Assembly (NCBI GenBank): GCA_903900265.1
Contig: CAIUMM010000121.1
Span: forward strand, 35,269-99,268
DNA: 64,000 bases
Reading direction: 5' to 3'
Source: an uncultured Pseudomonadota bacterium
Lineage (GTDB): Bacteria > Myxococcota_A > UBA796 > SXON01
Under the pieces are notes generated by a model. It was not told the origin of the DNA. It searched no databases and saw only the letters and a list, made by a program, of their open reading frames with translations. Below, in pieces: positions 30,209 through 53,932 of the stretch (its first letter is position 1; the number at the start of each line of letters is the position of its first letter). A program made the position numbers and the translations under genes.

Positions 30209-31009
30209 TCAGCTTCCAGCCTTTCCCTTGACGTCGACCTTCGAGCGCCAGACCTCCCAGTGCGGCCCGACACCTTCCAAAGAATCTTCTTGGATGTTCA
30301 GAAACTCCCGAAGTGCGTGGCGACCGACGCCGCGGTTGTAGTGGTATTGGTACTGGAGCGGCCCGTAGCGATGCTCCGCGCCAACCGGACAAGCCGCCCG
30401 GGCATCGCAGCTGGACGCACATACGGTAGAAGTCTGGTGAAACGCCGCACAGGGGTCGACCGCCCACTTGCCGGCGGCGAACGCCCCGCCTGGACAGGCC
30501 GAAGCGCAGGGCGCCGCGCAACCCTCGCAAGAGCCGGGGACCGGCGTAGAAACCGGCAAGTCCGCGTCGATGAAGCACGCCGCGCGTAAGCCGATCCACG
30601 GTCCGTACTCCGGATGCAGCAGCAGCCCGAGTCGGGAGTCCGCGCCGAGGCCGGCCAGCTGCGCCAGCACCCGAAAATCAATGTGAACGTCGGCTTCTGC
30701 CGCGGCAAAAAACCACCGATGCCGGTGACCGACCAGCAGCGGCGCCAGCGCGTCGATGCGACGGCGGACGAAGGCGTCGAGGGGATGGACGTGCTCGGTC
30801 AGGTGGCGCGGCTCGCCGCGTAGATCCTCGATCAGCGCGTCCCAGAGCGCGGTGCCGCCGTTTCCGACGACGACGACCGAGCGCGCCCCTGGGCAAAGCG
30901 CGGCCGATCGGCGCGCTTCGGGCTGCAAAGCATCCCAATCTGCAACCGAAGCGACGCCGATCAGATTCAGACCCGCAGGGGAGAGCGCCGCTTGGAACAC
31001 GTTCAACAT
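30209..31009 (-). CDS. 4Fe-4S ferredoxin-type domain protein (QueG/reductive-dehalogenase-like fold suspected)
   Basis: Cys cluster GSCEGCAAPCASACPGGAF (CxxCxxxCxxxCP) plus downstream CAAFH...CASSCDARAACP. Confidence 0.5.
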   Translation of the reverse strand: MLNVFQAALSPAGLNLIGVASVADWDALQPEARRSAALCPGARSVVVVGNGGTALWDALIEDLRGEPRHLTEHVHPLDAFVRRRIDALAPLLVGHRHRWFFAAAEADVHIDFRVLAQLAGLGADSRLGLLLHPEYGPWIGLRAACFIDADLPVSTPVPGSCEGCAAPCASACPGGAFAAGKWAVDPCAAFHQTSTVCASSCDARAACPVGAEHRYGPLQYQYHYNRGVGRHALREFLNIQEDSLEGVGPHWEVWRSKVDVKGKAGS

Positions 31010-32078: not shown

Positions 32079-33393
32079 AGCCCAGCTCCTTCATGATCGA
32101 CAGGTTGGCAGGGTCGGCGAGCACCGGCGACAGCAGCCCGATCCGCGCAAACCAGCGACGCTGCCGGGGCTGCGCGGTCGCCATCACCAACGGCAACGCC
32201 CCCGAGAGCACCGCCGAGAGCTCCGAAGCCACCGGCAACCCGAGCCACTGTTCGAGTGCGTCCAGAGCGGGCCGTTGACGATCCGAGGGACCTAGCGCGT
32301 CCTCAAAACGGAGCCGAAATGGAGCTTCCCGACCAGGCACACGCGCGTCGGCGAGCAAGGCGGCGTGCGCCGAGCGCCACTGAAACGCGCACACCTGCTC
32401 GAGCGGCGCCGAGGCGTACGCCTGCCAGTCCACCGGACGATCGAACTTCCACCACCGATCCGCACCGGGGACGACGCCGGTGTACCCGGCGATGTTGAGC
32501 CCGCCTACCTCGTGGGAGTGGAACCCCGGGTGACGCCAGCCATCGTAGAGGCCGTTCACGCTGCCGCCGACGTTCCGCGTCAAATGCAGCACCCGCAGCC
32601 GAGCGCTGGCAAACACCCGACGCAGCCAATCGAGTCGGTAGGCGTTGCTCGGCGTCTTGATCACCAGCGGATGCGCAGCGAGGCGCTCTTCATCCGCGAC
32701 CTCCCAAGGCCCGGTGAGCACGAACGGGGGCTCCTCGAGGATGCCGCGAGGGACAAAATCCACCCCGCACGAATCTGGCCCAGAGCCCAGCGCCGCCATC
32801 CGTCGCTGATCGAGGTCGTACGCGGCAGGTTGAATCTCCGGCCAATACACGCGCAGCGCGCTGATGAGCCGCGCGTGGAAGTGCGGCGGATCGGCGAACA
32901 GGCCTGGCGGCCAGCCATGGTTCTCGCGAAGCTCGCGCAGCACGCCCTGCACGCAGCGATGCACGGTGTCTGCGTCGAAGCTCAGGCTGGGCCACTGCAG
33001 GGTGAGGCGAACGGCGATCTCGACGGCAAAGCGCCATTCATCGCGTTCGCCGTGCAGCGTGTTGGTCGGCCACCCACAGTCCCAACCCAGCTCCTGCCCC
33101 AGCCCCGCGGGCACAGGCGTGTCGGCGGCGAGCGCGTCGGAGTGCGGATCATCGACGCCGTGCAGCCGGAAGAACGGGTTGATCTCGGCGCGCAGGTGCA
33201 GCATCCGCCGGCTGTTGCGCAGCACCTCGGCAAAAATCGAGCTGCCCCCTCGGGAGCTTGAACCGATGACGATCACCTGCGAGGCGCAGCGCGTCACATC
33301 CGGAGGCGCAGCCGCGCCGCTCTGGGCACGCAGCGCCGCCATCCGCGCGCGGATCCCCGAAAGCTCGCCTTCTCCCAGCCTCGAATCAGACAC
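32050..33393 (-). CDS. sulfotransferase-like protein (447 aa)
   Basis: P-loop-like PAPS 5'-phosphosulfate-binding candidate VIVIGSSSRGGSSIF and a later LHLTRNVGGSVNG segment. The GTG start overlaps the upstream stop (GTGTCTGA). Family call is tentative. Confidence 0.45.
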   Translation of the reverse strand: MSDSRLGEGELSGIRARMAALRAQSGAAAPPDVTRCASQVIVIGSSSRGGSSIFAEVLRNSRRMLHLRAEINPFFRLHGVDDPHSDALAADTPVPAGLGQELGWDCGWPTNTLHGERDEWRFAVEIAVRLTLQWPSLSFDADTVHRCVQGVLRELRENHGWPPGLFADPPHFHARLISALRVYWPEIQPAAYDLDQRRMAALGSGPDSCGVDFVPRGILEEPPFVLTGPWEVADEERLAAHPLVIKTPSNAYRLDWLRRVFASARLRVLHLTRNVGGSVNGLYDGWRHPGFHSHEVGGLNIAGYTGVVPGADRWWKFDRPVDWQAYASAPLEQVCAFQWRSAHAALLADARVPGREAPFRLRFEDALGPSDRQRPALDALEQWLGLPVASELSAVLSGALPLVMATAQPRQRRWFARIGLLSPVLADPANLSIMKELGYGVDPENWE

Positions 33394-34426
33394 CGAGCAC
33401 CAGCCGCGACCGGATCCGCGTCAGCAAAACCGACCGACTCCAGCGCTTCCAGAAGTTCTTGTCCCGCCGGAACGAGCGCGCCTCGACCTTCAACCACGCA
33501 GCTTCATCCTCGATCCACCACCCCGCGCGCTGCACCGGGCCGGGGTGAAACGCCGCGCGGGCCTCGGCGGTGTTCACTGGGGTGTAGCCCAGCGCCTCCA
33601 TCGTCGACCCGGCGATGCTCTCCAGCGCGAGCACCTCGGGGGTCGAGAGGTCGCCGCGCCAGCGCTCCAAGCCTTCGGTGCGGATAGGCGCGGCGGTGTT
33701 CTTCCAGGACTCGGACAACGACGCCGACTTGCGAGCTTCGGCGCCCTTGAAAAACTCCAGCATTGGAGGGTGGAAGTCCTCTCCCAAGTAGTCGCAGATG
33801 CGGCGGACCTCGCCCGCGGCATCGCCGATCAGCGACTCGTACTTGACGCGCAGCAAGGGCACACCGGCGCGCTCGAGCGCGAGGCCCTGATCTTGCTGCT
33901 CCTTCCATAGAGCGGCGGTGTTCGCCGGGTGAAACGCTGAAAAAACAGACTCTCGGGACGACGCCGCGACGTCGCGCGGGTCTCGGTACAACCAGAGCAG
34001 CTTGGCGTCCGGCCACTCAGCGACGATGCGCTCGCCGTGGGCGATCATGAAGGTGCTCTTGCACCCCCAACGCCGCTTGTGCTCATGATCGCGCACCGCA
34101 TCATGAAAAGCCGCGTAGACCGAGAACAGATCCGGAGGACCGCCCGGCCCCGGCCGGCGCCCGACGCGCTCGATGATCTCGGCGACCTCGGGCACCCACG
34201 GCCAAGGCTGAATGTGCGCGCAGACCAGCAGACGCACGTCCTCGATCAGACGGCGCAGGCGCGCCGGATCGGAAAGATCACCGTACTTCGCGGCGAGCGG
34301 CGTGAAGTACTTCATCACATGCGGGGGATGCGGGATGACGATGCTGGGGTGGCTGCCGAGGATCACCCGCAGCAGGTTGGAGCCCGAGCGCTCGGTACCA
34401 AGAATGAAGAGGGGCGACGCAGTCAT
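33386..34426 (-). CDS. sulfotransferase family protein
   Basis: LFILGTERSGSNLLRVILGSHP (5'-PSB loop) and LLWLYRDPRDVAAS (3'-PB motif). ATGA overlap with the upstream gene. Confidence 0.7.
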   Translation of the reverse strand: MTASPLFILGTERSGSNLLRVILGSHPSIVIPHPPHVMKYFTPLAAKYGDLSDPARLRRLIEDVRLLVCAHIQPWPWVPEVAEIIERVGRRPGPGGPPDLFSVYAAFHDAVRDHEHKRRWGCKSTFMIAHGERIVAEWPDAKLLWLYRDPRDVAASSRESVFSAFHPANTAALWKEQQDQGLALERAGVPLLRVKYESLIGDAAGEVRRICDYLGEDFHPPMLEFFKGAEARKSASLSESWKNTAAPIRTEGLERWRGDLSTPEVLALESIAGSTMEALGYTPVNTAEARAAFHPGPVQRAGWWIEDEAAWLKVEARSFRRDKNFWKRWSRSVLLTRIRSRLVLGV

Positions 34427-35355
34427 GGTTCCGGAGAGTCTACCCCAAAAACCTCGGCGAGCAGGCAACGCGCGCTGCCGCCACCGACGGTCTCCACCGT
34501 GTCGATGTCCACGACCACCGTCCTTCCCAACATCGCCCGCTGCGAAGCGGTGAGCGCAGCAAAGGCGCGCCGCGACAGCACCGCGACCGGCCCCGCAGGG
34601 GAGCTCAGATAAAGAAGGTTCGCGGCGTAGTCCCGAATCTGGGCGGCTTCGAGCACGAGCTGCCGACGATCGCCCAGCGCGCTTAGCAACGCGGCGCGCG
34701 CCGCCCCCGGCGCCACCAGATCAGGCGCGAACACCACCAGCTCCGGGCCCAGCGCCAGCATCACGTTGGTGTGGTAGACCGGCGCGCCGTCTAAAGCTGC
34801 GTCAAACGCCACGATTCGGTAGCCCGTAGCCTCTGAAAACGCCGATAGACCCGCGGTCGTTGTGCGCGGAGAGCGCGCCGCAAACGCCACGCGCGCCGCA
34901 TGGTCAAGGATGAGGCTGCCCGTACCTTCGAGGTAGGCGCCATCGGCCTCCAGCGCGCTCAGGTCTACGACGCGCCGGGTGCCATGAAAAGCACGCACCT
35001 GCTCCAAGAGCTCCGGTCGCCGCTCTGCGCGCCGGGAGGCGACCGCCATCGGGTACAGCACCGCGGTGCCATCGGGGTGAAAACTCACCCAGTTGTTGGG
35101 AAAACACGCGTCCGGCTTCGGCGGCTCTATCGCGTCTGCGGCGAGAAAAACCCGCACGCCCGCCGACTGCAACGCCTCCGCCGCGCGCTCCACCTCGAAA
35201 CGCGCGCGCGCGCGCTCGCTCGGCGGGACGCAAGCCGCGCCGGCGTCCTCCGGGCCCGACACGCCCTCCTGAGCGAACACGTTGGTCACCGCCGCTTCCG
35301 GGTTGAAGCCGAAGCGCTCGGGGCGAACCATCAACACGGCAGGGGCGAGCCACAT
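34423..35355 (-). CDS. guanidino-group modifying enzyme, CtlX / amidinotransferase-like
   Basis: MVRPERFGFNPE, FPNNWVSFHPDG, LEGTGSLILD, VYHTNVMLALG and the C-terminal GGGSARCLLAEVF nucleophile context. The start could be 35355 or 35331. Confidence 0.65.
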   Translation of the reverse strand: MWLAPAVLMVRPERFGFNPEAAVTNVFAQEGVSGPEDAGAACVPPSERARARFEVERAAEALQSAGVRVFLAADAIEPPKPDACFPNNWVSFHPDGTAVLYPMAVASRRAERRPELLEQVRAFHGTRRVVDLSALEADGAYLEGTGSLILDHAARVAFAARSPRTTTAGLSAFSEATGYRIVAFDAALDGAPVYHTNVMLALGPELVVFAPDLVAPGAARAALLSALGDRRQLVLEAAQIRDYAANLLYLSSPAGPVAVLSRRAFAALTASQRAMLGRTVVVDIDTVETVGGGSARCLLAEVFGVDSPEP

Positions 35356-35441
35356 ACAAGCCTCGGGAGAAGATCGCCCGGTATCAAACAAACTCCACCG
35401 CGCCCCTCCCGGGAACAACGCCGGTTCGCTACCTTGCGAAC

Positions 35442-36863
35442 ATGCTCTGGATGTACTGCTTTTGGCTCCTCGGATGCGCTTCGCCGGCGCTACGGGCGCC
35501 CGCAGCGCCCCTCTCGGTGGTGATGGTCTCCTTCGACACCACCCGCGCCGACCGAATCGGCACGTACGGAGGCCCTTCTGGGCTGACGCCCAACCTCGAT
35601 CGATTCGCTGAAGGGGCCGTGGTGTTCGAGCACGCCTACGCGCAGACCAACACCACCGGCCCCTCTCATGCGAGCCTGTTCACCAGCCGCTACCCCACTG
35701 AGGTCCACGGAGGCGGCCCCGTCGCGGCGCCCGGCGCGGAGACCCCGCTGCTCGCGCAGGTGCTGCACGCCTACGGCTACGCCACCGCCGCGTTCGTGTC
35801 GGGCGGCGCGATGAACCCGCAAGGCGGGCTGGCCCCGGGCTTCGACGTCTACAAGTCCGCCAGCAACTTTGGCTCGATGTCCAAGACCATCCCGCTCGCG
35901 CTCAGCTGGCTTGAAAAACTACCCGCATCCAAGCCAAGCTTTACCTTCGTACACGGCTACGACGCGCACTCTCCCACGTCCAAGCCCGCGCCCTTTGCCG
36001 GCAAACCCCCGACCGGGCTGGCGGCCGAGGTGCTGCGCACCCGATCCGAGCGCGTCATGGACGGCGCGATGCACGCCACCGATCTCGATATTCCCGTGAT
36101 CGACAGCACGTTTCTCCGCATGCGGTCTCCCGAAGCCCGCGCGGCGCTCACCGCGCTGGAGCCCGACGCCCCGCAGCTCACCGAAGCGGACATCGCCCGG
36201 ATCCGGCAGTCCTACGACGACGCGCTGGGGTGGGCGGACACCTGGTTCGGGATGCTGATGGCCGGCCTCGAGGCCCAACATCGCCTCGAAAACACCGTGA
36301 TCATCGTGCTCGCCGACCATGGGGAGCAGCTCGGTGAAGACGGCCTGTTCGGTCACTGCTGCGGGGCGGAGGATGAAGAGACCCACGTGCCGCTGATCAT
36401 CGCTGGCCCCGGGCTCAAGCCCCACCGCGAAGCCGGCCTCGTCGAGCTGATCGACGTCCTGCCGACGATCACCGATCTGGTGCAGGCCGTCACGCCCACC
36501 GGCGCGCACGGACGCTCGCTCGCGCCCGCGCTGCACGGAGAGCCTTGGGAGGGGCGCGGAGTCGCGTGGACCCAAGCCACGCAGCGCTACACGCTGGTTT
36601 CTGGCCGCACCGGCACCGGCAGGCTCTCGTACACCGGCGTACAAGCCAAGTCCTCGGCGCTGGCGGACCTGATCGAAGTGGCCCGACTCGACGGTCCCGG
36701 CTTCACGTCGTCCGGCACCGTCGACCGCGCCGCGCTCCGGACCGAAATGGTGAGCTGGCTGCGCTCCCTCGGTCCCGCCGCCGCAGAAAAAAAGCTCGCG
36801 ACGCCACCCGAGCTGCTCCGGACGATGCGGTCGCATGGCTACTTCGAGGCCAACAAACCATGA
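35442..36863 (+). CDS. sulfatase-family (alkaline-phosphatase superfamily) lipoprotein with Thr at the nucleophile position
   Basis: Lipobox MLWMYCFWLLGCASP, then VVMVSFDTTRADR and TNTTGPSHASLFTSRYP. The usual C/S-x-P-x-R is T-G-P-S-H here. Also VLADHGEQLGE. Confidence 0.7.
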   Translation: MLWMYCFWLLGCASPALRAPAAPLSVVMVSFDTTRADRIGTYGGPSGLTPNLDRFAEGAVVFEHAYAQTNTTGPSHASLFTSRYPTEVHGGGPVAAPGAETPLLAQVLHAYGYATAAFVSGGAMNPQGGLAPGFDVYKSASNFGSMSKTIPLALSWLEKLPASKPSFTFVHGYDAHSPTSKPAPFAGKPPTGLAAEVLRTRSERVMDGAMHATDLDIPVIDSTFLRMRSPEARAALTALEPDAPQLTEADIARIRQSYDDALGWADTWFGMLMAGLEAQHRLENTVIIVLADHGEQLGEDGLFGHCCGAEDEETHVPLIIAGPGLKPHREAGLVELIDVLPTITDLVQAVTPTGAHGRSLAPALHGEPWEGRGVAWTQATQRYTLVSGRTGTGRLSYTGVQAKSSALADLIEVARLDGPGFTSSGTVDRAALRTEMVSWLRSLGPAAAEKKLATPPELLRTMRSHGYFEANKP

Positions 36864-37339
36864 TCTTCTTGCTGCTGGCCTGTAGCGGCCCCACGTGGAC
36901 GGCATCCGCGGTGCTCGAAGGAGCGCGCGCGCACGCCGACCTCGATCACGACGGCACGATCACCGCCAAGGAGATGCCCGGGGATGCCGACAACGACGGC
37001 ATCGTCACCGAAGCCGAGCTGCGCGCGTTCATCGAAAAACAAGGCGCCAAGTGGCACTCTCCCGGCTGGGACCCACCTCGGCGCGCCCTCGTCCAACCGC
37101 ATGACGTCGGCTGGGAGGTGGTCGCCACGGTGCGCGAAGAGATCCTATCGGTCGATCCCAACGCTGAAGTTCCGACCTTGGAAGCCATGGAATCCGCGGC
37201 CTACGCCGCTATCACCGACCCGAAGGTGCAGGCGCTGCTGACCCAGATGGAGCCCGCAGCCGCCAAAACTGGGGTGGTCATCCCCGCGGCGGTGCACCCG
37301 CCCGTGGCCGCCGCTCAGGCTGGCTTGAAGCAGGAGTAG
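36860..37339 (+). CDS. EF-hand pair lipoprotein
   Basis: MIFLLLACSG lipobox and two canonical 12-residue Ca-binding loops, DLDHDGTITAKE and DADNDGIVTEAE. ATGA overlap with the sulfatase-family gene. Confidence 0.7.
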   Translation: MIFLLLACSGPTWTASAVLEGARAHADLDHDGTITAKEMPGDADNDGIVTEAELRAFIEKQGAKWHSPGWDPPRRALVQPHDVGWEVVATVREEILSVDPNAEVPTLEAMESAAYAAITDPKVQALLTQMEPAAAKTGVVIPAAVHPPVAAAQAGLKQE

Positions 37340-39267
37340 ACGACCCAACGCCAACAGTCCCGGATCTCTCCGGTGGGCGAGATCTCGAAGGGATGCACGG
37401 CGCGCACCTCAGCGGGACACTGGTGGTACAGATCCTTGATCTGATGCCGGTGCAACGCCGGGGTCTCCCACGTGGCGATCCAGTTGTCGATGTCTTCCCA
37501 CTGCAGGAACTCTTCGGTGGTCAGACCGACAAAGCCGGCGCCGGCGAGCAGGCTGCGCATGTCTTCGTCGTACAGGTTGTTCACAAACAACGGCTGCTTT
37601 TTCTTGACGACCTGGAACATCCACGGACCATCGATCGCCGAGAACGGCACCCACTGGCCGACCACAAACTGGCCGCCGGGCTTGATGACGCGGAAGATCT
37701 CGGAGAGCGGGCGCTCGGGCTGCGGCAACAGGTGCAGCACCTCGCGGTTGCACACGCCGTCGAAGCTGTTGTCCGGGAACGGGATGTCGTACACATCGCC
37801 TTGAACCACTTCATCCAGACGGGTGCGCGCGAGCGCCGCCATCTCAGGGGTCAGGTCCAAACCGATGATCTTGCCGACCTTGCCGCGGAACGAGTTTCCG
37901 ACCACGCCGCTGCCGCAGCAGACGTCGAGGATGACGGCGTCCTTCGACATCACCGAGGATCCACCGTGCAAGCCGAGCAGCCCGGCGTTGGTGATCCAAT
38001 CGGCCGAAGCGTGCCAGTTCTTGGAGCGGATGCCGAACTGTTGGCGGTAAATGTCCTTGTCGACGAGGTGCTCGACACGCTCGTAGCGCGCGCGCTCGCT
38101 CGCCCGACGAGAGGCGAGCCGGGCCCGACCGGCTTCGATCGCCCGACCGACGATCGCCGAGGCTTCCACCGGGTTGGAGCGCAGCCAGCTGGCGAGGCCG
38201 CCGGCCAACACATGCTCGACCGCGGCGCCCGCAGCGTCATCCAACAAGCGGGTCTTGGTCTGGCCTTCGAAGTGCGGATCGCGCATCCGAACCGAGAGCA
38301 CCGCGACGAGGCCCTCCATCGCGTCGGTGCTGCCGAGCGGCTCGGTGGGGTCGATGAGCTTCTGCTCCAACGCGAAGCGCGCGAGCTGGTGCCCGACCGC
38401 GGCGCGCAGGCCGTCCAGATGAGCGCCGCCGAGCGCGGTGTGCACGTGGTTGACGTAGCACTGCACGTCTTCAGCGAACGCGCGGGTCCAGAGCAGCGCG
38501 GCCTCGACGGTCACGCCGGACTCTTCGCCCTGAATGACCAGCGCCTGAGCGTGAACCAGCTCTTCGTCGTCGGCCATCCAGCGCACAAAGCCGCCGATGC
38601 CTTCATCCGAGGAGAAGCGCACGGTCTGACCCGCGCGGGACAACGCACACTGCAGCCCGCCGGTGAGCCAGCTCTGCGCGCGGAGCCAGGCCTCAACGGC
38701 GTCGACATCGACGCGCGCGGCGCCAAAGATCGTGGGATCGGGCGTAAACCGCACCGTCGTGCCCGAGCCGCTCGCGTCGGCGACGCGATGGAAGGCTTCG
38801 GACTGCTCGCCGCGCACCCAAGCGCCGCGCCAGCGTCCGCCGTCCCGGGACACTTCAAGCTCAAAGCGCTCGGAGAGCGCGTTGACACAGGTGAGTCCGA
38901 CGCCGTGCATGCCGCCGGGCAGGCGGTAGGCGCCGTCGCGGAACTTGCCGCCGGCGTGCAAGGTGGTCACGACCACCTCGGCCGCGGGGCGACCATCGGC
39001 CAAGGGTTCCACGGGGATGCCGCCGCCGTCGTCCGCGATCGTCCAGGTGCCGTCTGCGTCGACGGTGACGTCGATGCGGTGGGCACGACCGGAGAGCGCC
39101 TCGTCGAGCGAGTTCTGCAGCACTTCAACGACGAGCTGCATCACACCGGCGGCGCCGGTAGAGCCGACGTACATCGCCGGGCGGAGGCGCACGGCCTGCA
39201 GCCCTTCGAGGACGACGATGCTGCTGGCGTTGTAGGTAGAACCAGAATTCTGAGTCGTATCGCTCAC
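37315..39267 (-). CDS. GyrB-type GHKL ATPase + transducer domain fused to class I SAM-dependent methyltransferase (no TOPRIM)
   Basis: The N-terminal ~400 aa are colinear with the window's own gyrB: LEGLQAVRLRPAMYVGSTG, EVLQNSLDE, DDGGGIP, TTLHAGGKF, GMHGVGLTCVNALS, FEGQTKTRL. The C-terminal ~220 aa carry ILDVCCGSGVVG (motif I) and IKPGGQFVV. GTG 39267 follows GGAGGA and overlaps the upstream stop (GTGA). The track ORF start (39630) is over-extended. Confidence 0.8.
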   Translation of the reverse strand: MSDTTQNSGSTYNASSIVVLEGLQAVRLRPAMYVGSTGAAGVMQLVVEVLQNSLDEALSGRAHRIDVTVDADGTWTIADDGGGIPVEPLADGRPAAEVVVTTLHAGGKFRDGAYRLPGGMHGVGLTCVNALSERFELEVSRDGGRWRGAWVRGEQSEAFHRVADASGSGTTVRFTPDPTIFGAARVDVDAVEAWLRAQSWLTGGLQCALSRAGQTVRFSSDEGIGGFVRWMADDEELVHAQALVIQGEESGVTVEAALLWTRAFAEDVQCYVNHVHTALGGAHLDGLRAAVGHQLARFALEQKLIDPTEPLGSTDAMEGLVAVLSVRMRDPHFEGQTKTRLLDDAAGAAVEHVLAGGLASWLRSNPVEASAIVGRAIEAGRARLASRRASERARYERVEHLVDKDIYRQQFGIRSKNWHASADWITNAGLLGLHGGSSVMSKDAVILDVCCGSGVVGNSFRGKVGKIIGLDLTPEMAALARTRLDEVVQGDVYDIPFPDNSFDGVCNREVLHLLPQPERPLSEIFRVIKPGGQFVVGQWVPFSAIDGPWMFQVVKKKQPLFVNNLYDEDMRSLLAGAGFVGLTTEEFLQWEDIDNWIATWETPALHRHQIKDLYHQCPAEVRAVHPFEISPTGEIRDCWRWVVYSCFKPA

Positions 39268-39746
39268 TTGCTTCCTCCGTCGCTTTCTGCCGAACGGAGC
39301 CCCGCGAGCAAGCTCGAGAGCCGCGCCGCGTGCGCAGCCCGCAGCCGGCCCTGACTGGCGAACCAGCTGGAAATATCCGCAAAACCTTCGTTCATCGCCG
39401 TGCGCGAGCGAGACTGCTCGGCCTCGGCATCCCGGGCGTAGAACGCCGCGAGCGCCGTGACGTTCAATCGTGAGTCGCCGATCGCCTTGCCGGTCAGCGG
39501 CTCCCGTGCCCGCATCAGCAGGTCGAGCGTGCCGCGCGCGTTGATCGCGTGCTGCTCGCCGATCTCGCGAAGCGCCCGGGCAAGCTCGGGCTCTCCTTCG
39601 ATCTCGGCGATGCGCGCGAAGTACCCGCACTCCACACCGGCGACGGACTCGTCGCGCAGCGCAGTCTCAAGCTGCTCACACGTGAGCGTCTCCTGAAGCG
39701 CAGGTTGAACATACCGACCTGCAGCTCGTTCGATTTTTTGGCTCAT
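39264..39746 (-). CDS. rubrerythrin/ferritin-like four-helix-bundle protein (no rubredoxin domain)
   Basis: Two rubrerythrin-like half-repeats: ECGYFARIAEIEGEPELARALREIGEQHA and AAFYARDAEAEQSRSRTAMNEGFADISSWF......AAHAARL. Confidence 0.55.
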   Translation of the reverse strand: MSQKIERAAGRYVQPALQETLTCEQLETALRDESVAGVECGYFARIAEIEGEPELARALREIGEQHAINARGTLDLLMRAREPLTGKAIGDSRLNVTALAAFYARDAEAEQSRSRTAMNEGFADISSWFASQGRLRAAHAARLSSLLAGLRSAESDGGSK

Positions 39747-39765
39747 TAGATTTCAGCGCGCCCTT

Positions 39766-41385
39766 TCAGACCTGAACCATGAATTCGCCGGAGCGCACGC
39801 GGGTCAAGGTGACCCCCGGGCCCGCAGGCTTCAGACCGCGGAACGCTTCGGTGCCCGGAGCAGGCACGCCACCGGCAGACGCGAACTCCGCGCGCCACGC
39901 AGTGGTGGGTTCGGGATCGTAGTACGCGAAGTGCTCGGGGAAGTGCTTGAAGTCCATGACCGGGCCTTCCTGGTAGCTGTCGTACAGGCGCTTGTAGGCG
40001 CTGCGCATGACATGGTCCGGGAGCTCGTTGTAGTTCAGGTACTCGTCACGCTCCAGCGCCTGCTCGACGGAGAGCCAACGGAGATGCTGGACTTCGTCCT
40101 GGATGCGGCCGGACGCCACGCCCTGGTGGTACACGGTGGTGCCGGGCATCGCGGACAGGTACTTCACGCGGGTGATGTGGCGATTCTCTTCGGCCCACTT
40201 GCACATGTGGTCGAGGCTCTCCTCGGTCTCGCCGGGGAGGCCGACGATGGTGAGGCCGCCGTAGCGGATGCCGCCTTCCGCCGAGTGCTTCATCGCCTTC
40301 ATGACGATGTTCTCGGTGCTGCCCTTGCGGGCTTCCTTCAACGCGGCGGGCGTGAGCGACTCCACGCCGTAGAGCGCGATGTCGCAGCCGGCTTCGCCCA
40401 TCGCTTTGGTGATCTCAAGATCGACGTCGGCGTTGCGGGTCAGGCAGGTCCAGCCGATGTCGAACTCCTTGATGACGTCGAGGTATTCGAGGGTCTGCTT
40501 CTTGTGCGCGGTGAACGTGAGGTCGACGAAGAACGCGAACTCGATGTTGTACTGCGACTTGAGCCAGGTGAGCTCGCTGTGCAGCTTCTGGGGCGACTTG
40601 ACCCGCTCCTGAGGCGTGGTGCGGTAGCAGAAGGAGCAGTCCATCTTGCAGCCACGCGAGTAGCTGGTGATGATCTGAGGCTGCAAACCACGGGGATCTT
40701 TGGACTGGGGCCAAAGGTCGAGCCGCATGTTCGGCAAGGAGTTCAAGTTGGGCATCTGGCCGCGCGGCGGCGTGCTGTGTACGCCGCCCTTGGCGTCTTT
40801 GTACCAGATGCCGTTGATCTGCGGCAGGCGGGTGTCCCACGCGCCTGTGGCGTAGGCTTCCATCACCTCGAGGATGGTCAGCTCGCCTTCGGAGATGACC
40901 GCGACGTCGGCGCGCGTCTCGCGCATGAACACGTGCGGCACGGAGGTGACGAGCGAGCCGCCGAGGATGACCGGCATGTTCGGGCGCGCGTTCTTGCACT
41001 CGCGGATGAGGTCTTCTACGAACGGGTAGTTGTCCTCAAAGGTAGCGATACCGAGCACGTCGGTACCTTCCATGATCTGGTCGTAGGCCGACTGCAGCGG
41101 CGTGGGGTCGTAGCGCACGTCGATGATGCGCACCGGGAACCCGGCGTTGATCAGCACGGTGGCGATGTAGGTGAGGCCCTCGTACGGGGAGGTCAGGAAG
41201 AACTCCCAGCCACGCGGCATCGTGAACGGAGACGGTCCGCAGACCAACGTGACGCGAGGAAGCCCCGAATTCGTGGCCGAGACCGGCGTGACCGACTGCT
41301 GAGCCATCTGATCCATCAGCTGCTGATCGGTGTTCGTGCCGGCAGTGATGTAAAGGCTGGGGTCCAGAGAGGGTGTGTACGCCAT
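39766..41385 (-). CDS. B12-binding-domain radical SAM enzyme
   Basis: Cluster motif YSRGCKMDCSFCYRT and an N-terminal B12-binding-like Rossmann region (VTLVCGPSP...IIDVRYDP...PVILGGSLVT). ATG 41385 sits 5 nt after AGGAG. Confidence 0.85.
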   Translation of the reverse strand: MAYTPSLDPSLYITAGTNTDQQLMDQMAQQSVTPVSATNSGLPRVTLVCGPSPFTMPRGWEFFLTSPYEGLTYIATVLINAGFPVRIIDVRYDPTPLQSAYDQIMEGTDVLGIATFEDNYPFVEDLIRECKNARPNMPVILGGSLVTSVPHVFMRETRADVAVISEGELTILEVMEAYATGAWDTRLPQINGIWYKDAKGGVHSTPPRGQMPNLNSLPNMRLDLWPQSKDPRGLQPQIITSYSRGCKMDCSFCYRTTPQERVKSPQKLHSELTWLKSQYNIEFAFFVDLTFTAHKKQTLEYLDVIKEFDIGWTCLTRNADVDLEITKAMGEAGCDIALYGVESLTPAALKEARKGSTENIVMKAMKHSAEGGIRYGGLTIVGLPGETEESLDHMCKWAEENRHITRVKYLSAMPGTTVYHQGVASGRIQDEVQHLRWLSVEQALERDEYLNYNELPDHVMRSAYKRLYDSYQEGPVMDFKHFPEHFAYYDPEPTTAWRAEFASAGGVPAPGTEAFRGLKPAGPGVTLTRVRSGEFMVQV

Positions 41386-41450
41386 GACGACTCCTAAGGG
41401 ATGGGGACGGTAACCGAGACGCGCGCGCAGCTCAGACACGTAGAGACGCT

Positions 41451-41479
41451 ACACTACCGGAAGCCACCGCGATGGTCAA
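41451..41479 (-). promoter_or_regulatory. candidate sigma70-type promoter for the radical SAM operon
   Basis: The minus strand reads TTGACC-N17-TAGTGT about 65 nt upstream of the ATG at 41385. Pattern match only. Confidence 0.3.
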
Positions 41480-41594
41480 CGGGGAACACACAGACAGACT
41501 GAGAGAAATTGGGCCCAAGCGCGCGACGGCGCCGTCTTTCACGCAAACGTCACCGAACGACGAAGCAGCCCGGCGAGAAGAACGCAGAGGAAGC

Positions 41595-43139
41595 CTACCC
41601 TGCGACGCCAAGGCGCTGGCCGATGAGCGTCGCCATCGCCATCGTCGTCAGCGACGGATTGACGCCCAGCGACGTCGGAAAAATCGAGCTGTCCGCGACA
41701 AACAGTCCGCCGAGACCGTGACACTCTCCCGTCGGCCCTAGCACACTCTGAAGCGGATCCCGCCCCATCCGGCACGAGGACATCGGATGCGAGGAATAAA
41801 GCACAAAGTCCTGAATCGTAAGCGGCGCCAACGCGTCCCGCAGCTGCTCTGCGGACGTGTAGCTGCCTGTCCCGTGCACTGGCGCGAAAACCTCGCGCGC
41901 GCCGCCCTCCAGCAACACACGCGCGGTGTGAAACATCCCCGTCTTGATGCGTTCTACGTCCGAGTACGCGAAGTCATAGGCGATCCGAGCCCGTCCATCC
42001 CCCCACGCGCGCACCGAGCCCGAGCCTGTGTCACTCACCATCACCACACAGCCACACAGGTGCTTCAACCTTGACAACGCAGCCTTTGTGTCCTGGCCGG
42101 TCACCATCAACATCGCCAACAACGCTTCCGGTGGCGCCGAGAACGTGTGTGGCAGCACGCCGTGCATGTCAGGTGGGTGAAAGTATGCCGCTTGCGTAGC
42201 GCCTTTCCACAGCATGACCTCGTGATCGCACCAGCCCAACACCGCGTTTCCCGGATGCAGGTGCAGGCCCTCTCCAAGCGCAGGACCCAGCGTGTCCGCC
42301 AACCCTGCATGGTGCAGCAACCTCGGCGTGCCAATGCCGCCCGCTGCGATGATCACCCGGTCCGCTTTGCAGGTGTACCGACCGCCCGGTTCGTTGGTGT
42401 CCGGGTGGGACATCAACCCCGAAACTCCACAAGCGCGGCCATTTTCGACGAGGATCCGATCGACGCGGACCTCGGCTTGGATGCGGGTGCCTCGGCCCGC
42501 GGCATCGGCGAGCAGGTTGGTGTCTACGCTCGCTTTCCCGCCCGACGGACACCCGTAGTAGCAGACACCGCAGCCGGTACAGCCCGGCGTGGCGCGCTCC
42601 AAATACCCGCCTTCATAGCCCAGAGCGTTCGCGCCACGGACGATCAGCGTGTTGTTCTCACCGGCGATGTCGAGGCGCGGCGTCGCGATGCCGAGCATCG
42701 CCCACAGCATGTCGTAGGCGGGGGACATCGCCGCGGAGGAGAACGCGTCGGAGCCGATCGCCTCGGTCCACCCATCGAGCACCGACGCGGGCGCGCGCCA
42801 CGCGATCGCGCTGTTGATGATCGAGCCGCCACCGAGCCCCCGGCCGGCGGCGATGGGGATCGGCGGCGAGGTCAGCGCGACCATCGCGCCCCCCTCTTGC
42901 TGGTGGTAGCGCATCGCCGGACCAAAGTGCCGCTCGTAGCGACGACGCGACGGCCCTTCTTCCACCACCACGACGCTGGCCCCGGCGAGCGCGAGCGCGC
43001 GCGCTGCAGCCGCTCCCCCAGGACCCGCGCCCACAATCACCACATCCGCGCGCTCTTCGCGATCCGCGGTGGAGAAGCCAGCGGCCTCGGGAGGCGCAAG
43101 GCGCAGCGGCCCGCTCGAAGCATCCCAATCACCCGGCAT
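41595..43139 (-). CDS. GMC-family FAD-dependent oxidoreductase
   Basis: ADVVIVGAGPGGAAAARALALAGASVVVVEEG dinucleotide fold, a GGGSIINS segment, a C-terminal GMC-like ....HPMSSCRMG motif and LFVADSSIFPTSLGVNP. Confidence 0.8.
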   Translation of the reverse strand: MPGDWDASSGPLRLAPPEAAGFSTADREERADVVIVGAGPGGAAAARALALAGASVVVVEEGPSRRRYERHFGPAMRYHQQEGGAMVALTSPPIPIAAGRGLGGGSIINSAIAWRAPASVLDGWTEAIGSDAFSSAAMSPAYDMLWAMLGIATPRLDIAGENNTLIVRGANALGYEGGYLERATPGCTGCGVCYYGCPSGGKASVDTNLLADAAGRGTRIQAEVRVDRILVENGRACGVSGLMSHPDTNEPGGRYTCKADRVIIAAGGIGTPRLLHHAGLADTLGPALGEGLHLHPGNAVLGWCDHEVMLWKGATQAAYFHPPDMHGVLPHTFSAPPEALLAMLMVTGQDTKAALSRLKHLCGCVVMVSDTGSGSVRAWGDGRARIAYDFAYSDVERIKTGMFHTARVLLEGGAREVFAPVHGTGSYTSAEQLRDALAPLTIQDFVLYSSHPMSSCRMGRDPLQSVLGPTGECHGLGGLFVADSSIFPTSLGVNPSLTTMAMATLIGQRLGVAG

Positions 43140-43686: not shown

Positions 43687-44544
43687 TCACTCCTCCGCGG
43701 AGGATTCCTCGCGACGGTAGATCTCGACGCGCTTCTCCGGGCCTTCGCCCAGCGAGCGCGACGCAACGCCGCTGACGTTGGCCACCTCGGTGTGCACGAG
43801 ACGACGCTCGTAGCTGTTCAGCTCGCGGCGGATCACTTCGGGTTCGCCGGTGTCCGCCACCTTGTTTGCGAGCTTGAGAGCGAGCTCCTTCAGGCGCTGC
43901 TCGTTGGAGCCACGATCCCCACGGTCGTCCCGACGCGGGCCGCGATCATCGCGACGCGGGCCACGGTCATCCCGACGCGGGCCACGATCATCGCGACGCG
44001 GGCCGTCGTTCCGGTAACCGCCGCGGTCGCCGCCGCGATCGCTACCGCGATCACCGCCGCGATCATCGCCGCGATCATCGCCGCGGGGACGGTCGTCGCC
44101 GTCCCCTTCGGGACGCGCCACATCGATGCGGAATTGAATGCCGGGGTGCTTCGGACCGATCGCGGTCTCCATCAGGTACTGCACGGCGCGCAGGGTGCTG
44201 CCGCCGCGACCCACCAGATGCCGACCGGCCTCCCCCACGTCGACCCAGGTCAGCACGGTGTCATCGCGCCGCTCGGCGCGCACGGTGCCCTGGCGACCCA
44301 TGGTGCTCAAAAGGCCCGACATCCACGCTTCCGCGTCCATCGACGCCGCGATGTCCCCAGGATCCTTGGCCCACGCGAAGATCTTGACGGTCTCCGCGCC
44401 GGTGGTGCCGGCGTTGCGAAAGTGGGCCATGTCCAGCTTGTGCTGCACGAGGTTGACCGGAACGCCGAGCGAAGCCGCAGCGGCCTCAATGGCAAGCTTC
44501 AAGCTCCGCCCTTCGGCGACGACATGGGAATCAGGGATGCTCAT
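43687..44544 (-). CDS. jag: Jag/KhpB RNA-binding protein (Jag_N, KH, R3H) with inserted Arg/Asp/Gly repeat
   Basis: Position after yidC and a C-terminal R3H context LNSYERRLVHTEVANVSGVASRSLGEGPEKRVEI. The central region is DRGGDRG...(GPRRDDR)x4. Confidence 0.8.
   Translation of the reverse strand: MSIPDSHVVAEGRSLKLAIEAAAASLGVPVNLVQHKLDMAHFRNAGTTGAETVKIFAWAKDPGDIAASMDAEAWMSGLLSTMGRQGTVRAERRDDTVLTWVDVGEAGRHLVGRGGSTLRAVQYLMETAIGPKHPGIQFRIDVARPEGDGDDRPRGDDRGDDRGGDRGSDRGGDRGGYRNDGPRRDDRGPRRDDRGPRRDDRGPRRDDRGDRGSNEQRLKELALKLANKVADTGEPEVIRRELNSYERRLVHTEVANVSGVASRSLGEGPEKRVEIYRREESSAEE
43924..44007 (-). repeat. 21-bp tandem repeat x4 encoding (GPRRDDR)4
   Basis: Units at 43924-44, 43945-65, 43966-86 and 43987-44007 differ by 1-3 nt. 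In frame inside jag. Confidence 0.9.

Positions 44545-51466: not shown

Positions 51467-53932
<2,466 letters not shown>

Follow-up and report, generated by a model that had tools for sequence, protein, structure and literature searches.

Three coupled genes on the minus strand

On the minus strand of the window (the whole stretch of 64,000 nucleotides that was analysed), three genes in head-to-tail order encode a B12-radical SAM enzyme, a rubrerythrin-like protein and a fusion of GyrB with a methyltransferase:

39766–41385, minus strand: NucJ/AcmJ-type B12-binding radical SAM enzyme (Pfam B12-binding and Radical_SAM; CKMDCSFC)
39264–39746, minus strand: NucQ/AcmQ-type pseudo-rubrerythrin, 160 aa (PDB erythrin and sulerythrin matches, 1e-14; NucQ 36%)
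37315–39267, minus strand: NucP/AcmP-type fusion, 650 aa, GyrB N-terminal ATP clamp plus class I SAM methyltransferase (NucP 48%)

The open reading frames (ORFs) and the sequence bear out the tight linkage described in the initial annotation. The TGA stop of the radical SAM gene (39768–39766) is followed by a 19-nt spacer and the ATG of the rubrerythrin-like gene at 39746, whose own TGA stop (39266–39264) lies on the GTG start of the fusion gene (39267–39265) in a GTGA overlap at 39264–39267. The fusion ORF (37315–39267) comprises 650 codons and a stop, so that the 651 aa first given holds with the stop codon counted, the protein itself being 650 aa. A longest-ORF call of 771 aa (37315–39630) is an artefact that reads through the overlapping upstream gene.

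The longest radical SAM ORF reaches 41439. The ATG at 41385, which yields 539 aa, is the probable start, because relatives are 537–538 aa long and the alignment with NucJ begins at 41370. An operon end at 41479, as first proposed, is untenable since no in-frame start lies that far out; the ATG at 41385 does match the 209-nt gap reported between this gene and a GMC oxidoreductase gene. A search of that gap, where a candidate promoter had been placed, found no sigma-70-like promoter, and a terminator-like hairpin lies at the GMC gene stop, between the two genes. The GMC oxidoreductase and its small subunit, earlier linked to the core genes, occur in none of 85 related loci, 48 of which are at least 18 kb long. 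We therefore rejected the GMC oxidoreductase as a neighbour belonging to the same gene set.

A GyrB clamp joined to a methyltransferase

Within the fusion protein three domains were assigned:

38734–39147, minus strand: GHKL ATP-binding domain, residues 41–178 (Pfam HATPase_c)
38095–38601, minus strand: GyrB transducer domain, residues 223–391 (Pfam DNA_gyraseB, 1.5e-38)
37318–38058, minus strand: methyltransferase domain plus C-terminal lid, residues 404–650 (Pfam Methyltransf_11/25)

The Methyltransf_11/25 match itself covers residues 446–536, and a disordered linker (residues 391–403) connects transducer and methyltransferase. No Toprim or GyrB_C Pfam domain was found in the protein, in agreement with the proposal that a class I methyltransferase replaces the TOPRIM domain and the GyrA-binding tail. 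NCBIfam gyrB models match the fusion over their first ~395 positions alone (353 bits, cut-off 882). In the AF2 model (pLDDT 90.2) the N-terminal half superimposes on the GyrB 43K structures 1EI1 and 3ZKB with a TM score of 0.93 at about 2 Å, so that both profile searches and structural overlay uphold its GyrB-like character; the inter-domain arrangement is uncertain (pTM 0.61, disordered linker).

The window also holds a genuine gyrB (51470–53932), the product of which is 39% identical to the fusion over 391 aa, and the four motif pairs that had been quoted for the two proteins are exact. The fusion is no closer to this GyrB than to those of Thermus or Mycobacterium, which marks it as an ancient GyrB offshoot and not a recent duplicate.

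Among 91 fusion-family sequences from several phyla, E48, N52, D79, K108, Y114, G119/G122/G124 and the QTK-loop residues Q336 and K338 are invariant. These are the equivalents of GyrB E42, N46, D73, K103, Y109, the Gly lid, Q335 and K337. In the N-terminal arm, Y12 and I17, which correspond to GyrB Tyr5 and Ile10, reach 90% conservation or more. Since no ATPase residue has been lost, the fusion is not a decayed paralog, as had been argued, and with its ATP-hydrolysis and dimerisation residues all invariant the GyrB 43-kDa module is predicted to be an active clamp. The most conserved part of the protein is the methyltransferase, which is about 60% identical between Myxococcota and Streptomyces copies and has an invariant motif I (LDVCCGSG). 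The solved structures closest to this domain are BH2331 (1VL5) and YcgJ (1XXL), neither of which has an assigned function.

The two partner proteins

The radical SAM protein shares 60% identity with Streptomyces calvus NucJ over 555 aa (tblastn). At the family level it is closest to HpnJ, ApyD and BchE, with all scores far under the equivalog cut-offs (the best NCBIfam match, HpnJ, gives 134 bits against a cut-off of 577), and its sequence assigns it to a family of its own, NucJ/AcmJ.

The rubrerythrin-like protein, 36% identical to NucQ by tblastn, is a four-helix-bundle erythrin that lacks a rubredoxin domain and has a degenerate di-iron site: two of the seven canonical Fe ligands are kept and five replaced. 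The E128 position is Lys or Arg in all 47 members of the NucQ-like family, and E53 and H56 are mostly lost. The di-iron site is hence destroyed throughout the family, in agreement with PMC10946740. Since the canonical Fe ligands are lost, a peroxidase role is unlikely and that of a structural partner more likely.

The genes belong to the nucleocidin and ascamycin sulfamylation set

The fusion is 48% identical over 642–646 aa to NucP of Streptomyces calvus/virens (WP_142191289.1), the protein so named in Table S5 of PMC10946740; the 646-aa alignment is with P0128, whose 90%-identity cluster includes WP_142191289.1. The gene order of the S. calvus nuc locus agrees with that table. Searches of the window with the Nuc proteins (tblastn) gave identities of 60% for NucJ, 48% for NucP, 48% for NucN, 41% for NucK, 40% for NucO and 36% for NucQ. 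On these alignments the three genes are shown to be the NucJ-NucQ-NucP core of a nuc/acm-type "sulfamylation sub-cluster".

This gene set is genetically required for the rare sulfamate (O-SO2-NH2) group of two Streptomyces antibiotics, nucleocidin and ascamycin. In S. calvus, knock-out of nucP in 2023 abolished sulfamylation, and knock-outs of nucI, G, J, K, L, N, O, Q and P each lost sulfamylation while keeping fluorination; the authors allow for direct or indirect effects (PMC10946740). A member of the fusion family had already been entered as "DNA topoisomerase II" in the ascamycin cluster in 2014 (PMC4257720). The view that no characterised fusion of this kind was known therefore does not stand: the kind is known, and the window adds a new member of it, in a Myxococcota-like genome. 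In the literature searched we found no report of a biochemical activity for any NucP-family protein, and its function hence draws on genetics and orthology only.

The cassette extends beyond three genes

Neighbouring genes match further Nuc proteins. Beyond a divergently transcribed sulfatase-family gene, as seen from the J-Q-P core, lie NucK-like, NucO-like, NucN-like, QueG-like and CtlX-like genes:

35442–36863, plus strand: sulfatase-family (alkaline-phosphatase superfamily) lipoprotein (Pfam Sulfatase, 9.5e-39)
34423–35418, minus strand: CtlX-like citrulline-utilisation hydrolase of the guanidino-modifying superfamily (Pfam DDAH_eukar, 1e-61)
33386–34426, minus strand: NucK/AcmK-type PAPS sulfotransferase (Pfam Sulfotransfer_3, 9.5e-28; NucK 41% over 341 aa)
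32050–33393, minus strand: NucO/AcmO-type divergent sulfotransferase-like protein, 447 aa (NucO 40% over 449 aa)
31071–32078, minus strand: NucN/AcmN-type DDAH/ADI/amidinotransferase-superfamily enzyme (NucN 48% over 314 aa)
30209–31009, minus strand: Cys-rich QueG/reductive-dehalogenase-like protein, 266 aa (NCBIfam QueG, 1.8e-9; PDB 5D08, 7e-5)

Because the neighbours match NucJ, NucQ, NucK, NucO and NucN, the real unit is a predicted sulfamoylation cassette of roughly 11 kb (30.2–41.4 kb) and not the three-gene operon first described, since it also includes two sulfotransferase-like genes, one DDAH/amidinotransferase-like gene and one sulfatase-family gene. The sulfatase-family gene and the K-O-N operon are divergently oriented. 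Its product, a distant counterpart of NucI/NucG, shares 28% identity with NucI (368 aa aligned) and 29.5% with the sulfatase encoded in the closest cassette. It has the lipobox LLGC, and the sulfatases of other Gram-negative cassettes likewise carry one. The NucO-like protein shows a faint Sulfotransfer_3 match only, as reported for NucO itself. The NucN-like protein matches Pfam ADI (2.7e-16) and NCBIfam dimethylargininase (8e-19), and its sequence keeps the C-terminal GGIGC catalytic-Cys motif.

The CtlX-like protein (NCBIfam CtlX 278 bits, cut-off 334) is encoded in translational coupling with the NucK-like gene (ATGA overlap, 34423–34426). Its gene is absent from 48 other large related loci and is a lineage-specific addition. 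QueG-like homologs of 45–56% identity adjoin the cassette in 8–9 related loci; the gene accompanies Myxococcota-type cassettes and may be part of them. No standalone NucL ortholog and no PAPS, nucleoside-salvage, glycosyl-transfer or resistance genes were found in the window.

Conservation across genomes

More than 80 genomes carry the cassette, those of Myxococcota, Actinomycetota, Gemmatimonadota and Desulfobacterota among them, and the fusion architecture is found in more than 220 protein clusters of about 650 aa. Both the fusion and its neighbourhood thus recur in other genomes. Of 52 loci that extend 6 kb or more on each side of the fusion gene, 47 have the radical SAM gene within 6 kb of it. 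Where over 700 nt of upstream sequence is available, the rubrerythrin-like gene comes immediately before the fusion gene in 71 of 81 loci. The stop codon of Q overlaps the start codon of P in 43 of 49 loci, as it does in nucQ/nucP. The large loci (at least 18 kb, n = 48) contain the radical SAM homolog in 45 cases and K, O and N homologs in 31–37 (NucK-like 35, NucO-like 37). Moreover, a NucJ-like protein is fused to an L-type methyltransferase within a J::L-K-Q-P cassette, and a natural P::L fusion exists. These fusions link the clamp to the methyltransferase and radical SAM modules. The suggestion that the fusion serves a dedicated pathway with the B12-radical SAM enzyme and the ferritin-like protein is borne out by this conservation and by the loss of sulfamylation in the nuc knock-outs.

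Proposed function and alternatives

We consider it likely that the NucJ-Q-P core and its cassette form a sulfamoylation system, an account that, mechanism proposals included, explains the locus best. Because the orthologous S. calvus genes are each required for sulfamylation, the cassette would most likely use sulfate from PAPS to build a sulfamoyl (O-SO2-NH2) group on some acceptor, perhaps adenosine. For the window organism both acceptor and sulfamate product are candidates by analogy only, and we know of no sulfamate metabolite from Myxococcota.

It is possible, though rather unlikely, that the Myxococcota-type cassette makes another product, such as a different sulfated or sulfur-nitrogen metabolite, a methylated one, or a modification of a lipid or polysaccharide. 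Recruitment of the shared enzyme set to sulfamate would then be peculiar to actinomycetes. NucL is absent, NucG and NucI are replaced by the one distant exported sulfatase-family lipoprotein, lineage-specific QueG-like, CtlX-like and esterase genes are added, nucleoside and PAPS genes are missing from the window, and the cassette is found in many phyla with no known sulfamates. However, the window has full-length orthologs (36–60% identity) for six of the nine sulfamylation genes, and the cross-phylum identity of the methyltransferase domain suggests the same substrate. In addition, in the cultured myxobacterium Sorangium, PfkB, HAD, NUDIX and phosphoribosyltransferase genes adjoin the cassette, as in nuc/acm.

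Far less probable is an ATP-operated clamp that captures and methylates DNA or RNA. The GyrB 43K module is intact, including arm, transducer and QTK loop, and R288, which we take to be R286 of the cavity in E. coli GyrB, is the consensus residue in the 91 sequences. The ΔnucP phenotype would then be indirect, for example regulatory, for which PMC10946740 leaves room. The fusion gene, however, is always embedded and translationally coupled in a small-molecule cassette, and the fusion is also found joined to a NucL-type small-molecule methyltransferase. The nearest methyltransferases are small-molecule enzymes or uncharacterised (BH2331, YcgJ, PMT, UbiE, ArsM), none of nucleic-acid type, and there is no TOPRIM domain and no DNA-gate partner or GyrA-like gene nearby. 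Nothing points to the nucleic-acid substrate initially envisaged.

The other early suggestion, a decoy or immunity protein soaking up an ATP-site gyrase inhibitor of a cryptic cluster, is highly improbable. An extra GyrB-like ATP site in a biosynthetic locus would suit it, as would the window copy's DDGGGIP, in which Gly replaces the coumarin-contacting Arg76, but the family consensus retains DDGRGIP. The E42 and K337 equivalents are invariant, whereas a decoy needs no catalytic residues; the most conserved part is the methyltransferase; and deletion of nucP takes away a biosynthetic step, with sulfamylation lost and the producer still viable. Aminoacyl-tRNA synthetases are the targets of the known products, which are nucleoside sulfamates, and acm carries an extra AlaRS as its resistance gene. 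An artefact of assembly or annotation, or a gyrB paralog in decay, can be dismissed almost entirely as an explanation of the fusion: the 771-aa ORF call was the sole artefact found, the architecture and length recur across the protein clusters, 83 of 84 genomic loci encode the two halves in a single frame, and the modelled protein (pLDDT 90) has invariant functional residues.

For the sulfamoylation system, then, we infer that ATP binding would close the N-gate of a fusion homodimer much as in gyrase. Instead of capturing DNA, the clamp would serve to gate the pair of methyltransferase domains or to assemble them, and the fusion would work in a complex with both the B12-radical SAM enzyme and the translationally coupled pseudo-rubrerythrin. 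The product contains no methyl group, so methyl transfer should be transient or directed at a cofactor. We tentatively prefer, as speculation, transient methylation of a sulfated or sulfamoyl intermediate followed by radical SAM processing. Our second, more doubtful speculation is SAM- and ATP-driven (re)activation of the NucJ cobalamin. Class B radical SAM enzymes normally methylate their own cobalamin, which counts against it. A third, on which we would place still less weight, has carbamoyl phosphate as its model: the GHKL site would phosphorylate sulfate or sulfamate. We know of no GyrB-class GHKL enzyme that phosphorylates a small molecule, which speaks against this. The sulfamoyl nitrogen would probably come, again speculatively, from a guanidino donor via the DDAH-like NucN homolog, and the coupled CtlX-like citrulline hydrolase would fit citrulline as a by-product.

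Comparison with known systems

RACo/RamA, which reductively activate corrinoid enzymes at the expense of ATP, and the reactivation module of MetH, which depends on SAM, offer a possible functional analogy only, in that an ATPase and a SAM-dependent methyl donor are here encoded beside a cobalamin enzyme; in some genomes the nuc-type modules are even fused to it. The folds are unrelated: RACo/RamA are ASKHA ATPases and MetH has its own activation domain, whereas the fusion combines GHKL and Rossmann methyltransferase folds. Nor do P and Q contain a redox cofactor.

The N-terminal 395 residues of the fusion align end to end with the 43K fragment of GyrB (E 1e-84; 38–41% identity), which with topoisomerase IV ParE makes up the type IIA topoisomerase ATPase subunits. 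They retain the arm, the QTK loop and every residue for ATP binding and hydrolysis; the TOPRIM domain, GyrA-binding tail and DNA gate are lacking. The radical SAM protein shares with the class B enzymes HpnJ, BchE and ApyD an N-terminal B12-binding domain, the radical SAM core and the CxxxCxxC motif. The NucQ-like protein is homologous to rubrerythrin and sulerythrin over the whole bundle (4DI0, 1J30; E about 1e-14), and resembles the erythrins in having no rubredoxin domain.

The closest systems are nuc and acm. Their hosts are actinomycetes, whereas that of the window is a Myxococcota-like Gram-negative. The window arrangement differs in placing J-Q-P in one operon and K-O-N in another, divergent from the sulfatase gene; it has one distant sulfatase-family gene and extra QueG-like and CtlX-like genes but no NucL, and no nucleoside, glucosyl or fluorination genes. 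Shared by both are the co-clustered NucJ, K, N and O homologs, a pseudo-rubrerythrin gene (nucQ/acmQ) that precedes and overlaps nucP/acmP, and, in NucP/AcmP of S. calvus/S. virens and Streptomyces sp. JCM9888, the same union of GyrB GHKL and transducer domains with a class I methyltransferase in about 650–660 aa.

Organization of the operon

The fusion gene is the last of three co-directional, minus-strand genes. Their tight linkage, a 19-bp gap followed by a GTGA overlap, had been noted in the initial annotation and is borne out by the ORF table and a reading of the sequence.

Genes of the operon
39766-41385, minus strand: NucJ-like B12-binding radical SAM protein, 539 aa from its probable start
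39264-39746, minus strand: NucQ-like, rubrerythrin-like protein, 160 aa
37315-39267, minus strand: NucP-like GyrB ATPase-methyltransferase fusion, 650 aa

The radical SAM gene ends in TGA at 39768-39766, and the rubrerythrin-like gene begins with ATG at 39746, 19 bases past this stop. Its own stop codon (39266-39264) overlaps the GTG start of the fusion (39267-39265), giving GTGA at 39264-39267; such an overlap between the Q stop and a P start recurs in 43 of 49 loci, and also in nucQ/nucP. The radical SAM start is probably the ATG at 41385, which yields the 209-nt gap to the GMC oxidoreductase gene described earlier. The candidate promoter placed in that gap is unsupported, since a scan for sigma-70-like promoters across 36.8-41.7 kb, gap included, found no site, the consensus being one that may not apply to the host phylum. 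Nor does the proposed linkage of the GMC oxidoreductase and its small subunit to the trio survive: neither has a counterpart in any related locus by tblastn, and a terminator-like hairpin with a T-run (41583-41604, minus strand), lying on the GMC oxidoreductase stop codon, separates that gene from the operon. At the other end, a small lipoprotein ORF (~36860-37339, plus strand; lipobox LLLACSG and EF-hand-type DxDxDG calcium-binding motifs) runs towards the fusion gene and shares ~25 nt with the 3' end of the latter.

Domains and fold of the fusion protein

Pfam places HATPase_c at residues 41-178 of the fusion, DNA_gyraseB at 223-391 and Methyltransf_11/25 at 446-536. Toprim and DNA_gyraseB_C have no Pfam match in the fusion, and both are present in the genuine GyrB of the window (51470-53932), whose gene adjoins dnaA and dnaN. 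Against the NCBIfam gyrB and parE models only the first ~395 positions match, with scores far under the cut-offs (TIGR01059, 353 bits against 882). The TOPRIM domain and GyrA-binding tail are missing, with a class I methyltransferase in their place. The motif pairs originally quoted for the fusion and the genuine gyrB are exact, and the two proteins are 39% identical over 391 residues.

The AlphaFold2 model, built on a 91-sequence alignment, has a mean pLDDT of 90.2 and a disordered linker at residues 391-403. Its N-terminal half superimposes on the GyrB 43-kDa crystal structures 1EI1, 3ZKB and 4WUB with a TM score of 0.93 and ~2 Å r.m.s.d., and residues 11-391 align with the Thermus GyrB 43K fragment (E = 1e-84). 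The GyrB-like character of this half therefore holds both in HMM searches and in the overlay of the monomer model.

Across the 91 sequences, the positions that we take to be equivalent to E. coli GyrB Glu42, Asn46, Asp73, Lys103, Tyr109, Gln335 and Lys337 are invariant, as is the glycine-rich ATP lid, and the N-terminal arm equivalents of Tyr5 and Ile10 are at least 90% conserved. The catalytic Glu/Asn, adenine-binding Asp, glycine loop and QTK lysine are thus retained throughout, as expected of the working module first proposed rather than a decayed paralog. Such conservation of the ATPase residues and the arm marks a working ATPase that dimerises.

The methyltransferase half is conserved more strongly still, at ~60% identity between the Myxococcota and Streptomyces proteins compared with ~39% for the GyrB half, and its SAM motif is intact. 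The solved structures closest to the methyltransferase domain are BH2331 and YcgJ (function unknown) and generic small-molecule methyltransferases, a search that yielded no clue to the substrate.

The operon is the core of a nuc/acm-type sulfamylation cassette

In the nucleocidin cluster of Streptomyces calvus, nucI, G, J, K, L, N, O, Q and P are each needed for sulfamylation and not for fluorination (Wojnowska et al. 2023, PMC10946740), the knock-outs of these nine genes having been made in S. calvus and S. virens only. The ascamycin cluster holds the same set, AcmJ (557 aa), AcmK, AcmL, AcmN, AcmO, AcmP and AcmQ, in which AcmP (658 aa) is annotated as 'DNA topoisomerase II' and AcmQ as 'rubrerythrin'; acmG and acmK knock-outs were also made (PMC4257720). 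The fusion aligns with the database protein P0128 at 48% identity over 646 aa (E = 0), and the 90%-identity cluster of P0128 contains WP_142191289.1, the accession of NucP (Table S5 of PMC10946740). The S. calvus locus recovered here has the gene order M-G-N-I-orf6-J-K-L-Q-P-O-V, identical to that published. We searched each S. calvus Nuc protein against the window by tblastn.

Matches of S. calvus Nuc proteins in the window (identity, aligned length)
NucJ: 60% over 555 aa
NucP: 48% (47.7%) over 642 aa
NucN: 48% over 314 aa
NucK: 41% over 341 aa
NucO: 40% over 449 aa
NucQ: 36% over 116 aa
NucI: 28% over 368 aa, on the window's single sulfatase-family gene
NucG: 28% over 156 aa, on the same sulfatase-family gene

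Orthologs of NucJ, K, N, O, Q and P are therefore co-located within 30.2-41.4 kb, at 36-60% identity over more than 70% of each protein, which identifies the window trio as the J-Q-P core of a sulfamylation cassette of the nuc/acm type. NucM, NucV and NucPNP have no match in the 64-kb window, and within it NucL and the S. carminius L protein match only the methyltransferase domain of the fusion; a NucL gene could lie elsewhere in the host genome. With L and G genes missing and nucleoside genes absent from the window, the Myxococcota cassette might be thought to make something other than a sulfamate, a reading we consider improbable.

The initial annotation knew of no characterised GyrB-ATPase/methyltransferase fusion. 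The NucP/AcmP family and its genetic role are in fact published (PMC10946740, PMC4257720), so the fusion is not a new architecture. The authors of the 2023 study call the roles of the sulfamylation genes unknown (PMC10946740), and we found no later enzymology of sulfamate formation in the searchable literature. The distribution outside actinomycetes and the comparative clues described below appear to go beyond these reports.

Extent of the cassette

The flanks of 85 loci were compared by gene-family clustering followed by tblastn. Genes of the related loci were called with a GC3 filter, since at 67% GC long antisense ORFs beat true genes under longest-ORF calling. The recurrent set comprises the B12-radical SAM protein, rubrerythrin-like protein, fusion, small methyltransferase, Sulfotransfer_3 protein, a ~450-aa divergent sulfotransferase-like protein, a DDAH/ADI-superfamily protein and a sulfatase-family protein. 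The view of the operon as a dedicated pathway thus stands as far as linkage to J and Q is concerned, which is conserved across related loci, but the unit is bigger than three genes.

Further genes at the cassette
30209-31009, minus strand: Cys-rich QueG/reductive-dehalogenase-like protein, 266 aa, CEGCAAPCASACPGG
31071-32078, minus strand: DDAH-like protein (NucN-like)
32050-33393, minus strand: sulfotransferase-like protein (NucO-like)
33386-34426, minus strand: sulfotransferase (NucK-like)
34423-35418, minus strand: CtlX-like citrulline-utilisation hydrolase, its stop overlapping the NucK-like start as ATGA at 34423-34426
35442-36863, plus strand: sulfatase-family lipoprotein, divergent

The protein encoded at 30209-31009 has no Pfam match and weakly resembles two kinds of B12/Fe-S enzyme, epoxyqueuosine reductase QueG and the reductive dehalogenases. 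In nine related Myxococcota-type loci (eight by another classification) a homolog at 45-56% identity adjoins the cassette, and in the window the gene occupies the position held in many cassettes by the small NucL methyltransferase. Pfam and BLAST rule out its being a methyltransferase itself.

The sulfatase-family lipoprotein is 29.5% identical to the sulfatase of the closest related cassette. Such proteins carry lipoprotein signal peptides or N-terminal membrane anchors in the Gram-negative cassettes (loci L007-L013, L022, L032, L018, L035, L040 and L075, and the window), whereas those of the Streptomyces cassettes (L060-L085) begin directly with the catalytic domain and are hence taken as cytoplasmic. 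This difference may mean that the step sits in another compartment, or that the role of the protein differs.

The esterase, a 347-aa ORF and a VKOR-DsbA gene were discarded as cassette members, having no homolog in any related locus. The putative esterase (28024-29244, minus strand; alpha/beta hydrolase, PF00756) lies at the distal end of the K-O-N operon; a possible parallel is AcmE of the acm cluster, a secreted alpha/beta hydrolase that frees ascamycin of its alanyl group. No PAPS-synthesis, nucleoside-salvage or resistance genes were found in the rest of the window. Elsewhere in it, a second and unrelated B12-binding radical SAM gene (85-2274, plus strand; 729 aa; 23% identity to NucJ) is followed at 2339-5539 (plus strand) by nucleotidyltransferase, NDP-sugar dehydratase/epimerase and DegT aminotransferase genes, the group probably encoding a modified-sugar pathway. 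A Jag/KhpB-like protein (43687-44544, minus strand), whose gene adjoins yidC, has its N- and C-terminal domains separated by a long low-complexity repeat rich in Arg, Asp and Gly (…GDDRGDDRGGDRGSDRGGDRGG…GPRRDDRGPRRDDRGPRRDDRG…).

Distribution of the fusion family

In a search of 5.8 billion proteins, the best 120 matches share the fusion architecture apart from one fragment (49-97% identity, ~650 aa), and a second search with a Streptomyces member as query added about a hundred more. All 240 matches listed over both searches carry the same precomputed Pfam set except the fragment P0023 (495 aa), which lacks HATPase_c. At 50% clustering, a search of 1.8 billion proteins returned only 17 representatives with E < 1e-30. 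We also scanned one genome per species with the C-terminal domain as query, finding 136 loci, of which 80 were kept. The fusion is thus present widely in other genomes, and of the 84 loci carrying both halves, 83 have them in a single frame; together with the family architecture and the invariant residues, this excludes an assembly artefact or a decaying gyrB paralog.

To judge by record titles, the 80 loci come from Myxococcota MAGs, Streptomyces (griseus, anulatus and others), Micromonospora, Gemmatimonadota, Desulfobulbia and an Armatimonadetes MAG, among others; the two protein searches also turned up named proteins from Sorangium, Frankia and Saccharothrix. The sulfamylation enzyme set, with its gyrase-derived ATPase joined to a methyltransferase, occurs well outside actinomycetes. 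Several high-GC MAG contigs with a Myxococcota-type cassette (L012, L018, L033, L037, L039 and others) have titles that name Bifidobacterium breve, Klebsiella pneumoniae, Enterobacterales or Rickettsiales, probably taxonomic mislabels in public records. In the cultured Sorangium sp. So ce1128 (L001, 15517-17956) genes for a PfkB kinase, a HAD phosphatase, a NUDIX protein and a phosphoribosyltransferase come after the cassette, a set that by analogy looks nucleoside-type and is reminiscent of nuc/acm. This strain offers a tractable host for experiments on the cassette.

Partner proteins and the nitrogen donor

The di-iron site is lost throughout the NucQ-like family: the equivalent of ligand E128 is Lys or Arg in each of 47 members, and E53 and H56 are seldom retained. 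Of the seven canonical ligands, two (E20 and H131) remain in the window protein; in a MAFFT alignment the other five columns (E53, H56, E94, E97 and E128) hold H, N, Y, D and R. From these residues, Q would more probably serve P as a structural partner than act in redox catalysis.

The NucJ-like protein has B12-binding (PF02310, 2.9e-15) and radical SAM (PF04055, 1.4e-20) domains with a CKMDCSFC motif. The closest NCBIfam relatives of NucJ are HpnJ, ApyD and BchE, not the classical methylases. In two loci (L086, 7800-10184; L087, 7801-10185) a NucJ-like radical SAM protein is fused to an L-type methyltransferase (794 aa), within a J::L-K-Q-P cassette whose O and N genes run divergently. P is fused to L instead on a Myxococcota_A UBA796 contig (L088, 7181-9883; 900 aa), where the last 240 residues show 64% identity to a NucL-type protein from Streptomyces. 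NucL and the methyltransferase domain of P are themselves paralogs, with 31% identity and the same lid at the C terminus. The two fusions and this paralogy suggest that J, L and P, with the coupled Q, probably act as one working unit. A sulfatase-methyltransferase protein, P0267, was rejected as a third such fusion, as it sits in a polysaccharide cluster without any cassette gene.

The CtlX-like gene is absent from all other loci examined. Its translational coupling to the NucK-like gene, with the catalytic Cys of the guanidino-modifying superfamily kept in the NucN homolog, is consistent with, though no proof of, a nitrogen donor of guanidino (arginine) type, which would leave citrulline as by-product. 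The CtlX-like hydrolase may then recycle citrulline released by the NucN homolog.

Proposed mechanism

We propose that ATP would close the N-gate of P as a homodimer, drawing the two tethered methyltransferase domains together, and that P would work with Q and J on a PAPS-derived intermediate. Since the product carries no methyl group, methylation would be transient or aimed at a cofactor. Three speculative routes follow. The first-ranked, which we hold only tentatively, is that a sulfated or sulfamoyl intermediate is methylated transiently and then processed by the radical SAM enzyme. Ranked second, and unlikely, is ATP- and SAM-driven reactivation of the NucJ cobalamin. The third, more doubtful still, is GHKL-mediated phosphorylation of sulfate or sulfamate, by analogy with carbamoyl phosphate.

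It is conceivable, at somewhat under an even chance, that a GyrB clamp has been exapted from DNA capture to small-molecule biosynthesis and that sulfamate metabolites are far more widespread than recognized. A catalytically active ATPase would drive or gate S-N bond-forming chemistry in a NucJ(B12-radical SAM)-NucL-NucQ-NucP complex, either by activating a sulfate/sulfamate intermediate or by resetting the cobalamin; the wide range of the metabolites would follow from the cassette, which is spread over Myxococcota, Desulfobacterota, Gemmatimonadota and many actinomycetes. That the fusion is instead a nucleic-acid clamp-methylase with indirect effects on sulfamylation seems very improbable. The gyrase-inhibitor decoy or immunity protein originally suggested is barely credible: the protein lacks TOPRIM, its conserved parts are the catalytic residues and fused methyltransferase, its neighbours are sulfamylation genes, and known cluster products target aminoacyl-tRNA synthetases, the acm resistance gene being an extra AlaRS.

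Nucleoside sulfamates (AMS, dealanylascamycin, nucleocidin) are powerful AMP mimics: they subvert aminoacyl-tRNA synthetases, and a large class of synthetic inhibitors is modelled on them. Under the reading above, these potent mimics would be far commoner in nature than the few Streptomyces compounds known. Comparative data narrow the question of how the sulfamate O-SO2-NH2 group is made in nature: no ATPase residue varies, and the 'rubrerythrin' is without a di-iron site. In some genomes the radical SAM protein, small methyltransferase and clamp protein form pairwise fusions, and in the window a citrulline hydrolase coupled to the cassette points to an arginine-type nitrogen donor.

Comparison with known systems

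The window J shares with cobalamin-dependent (class B) radical SAM enzymes an N-terminal B12-binding domain and a core with CxxxCxxC. Rubrerythrin/erythrin di-iron proteins use seven ligands (E20, E53, H56, E94, E97, E128 and H131), a site that the window Q does not keep; in this loss it agrees with NucQ, the 'pseudo-rubrerythrin' with two iron ligands missing (PMC10946740). With DNA gyrase subunit B the fusion shares the GHKL ATPase and transducer, including the catalytic Glu, Mg-binding Asn, adenine-binding Asp, Gly lid and QTK Lys, but it has no TOPRIM domain or C-terminal GyrA-binding tail and falls under the curated gyrB cut-off. GyrB-R, the target-duplicate self-resistance protein of aminocoumarin clusters, is a complete functional GyrB located among gyrase-inhibitor genes, whereas the fusion stops before TOPRIM and has sulfamylation genes as neighbours. 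NucP/AcmP, in contrast, is matched in full-length homology, in a domain architecture without TOPRIM and in the preceding, overlapping NucQ-type gene, and this family is the sole non-topoisomerase use of the GyrB 43K clamp encountered in our analysis.
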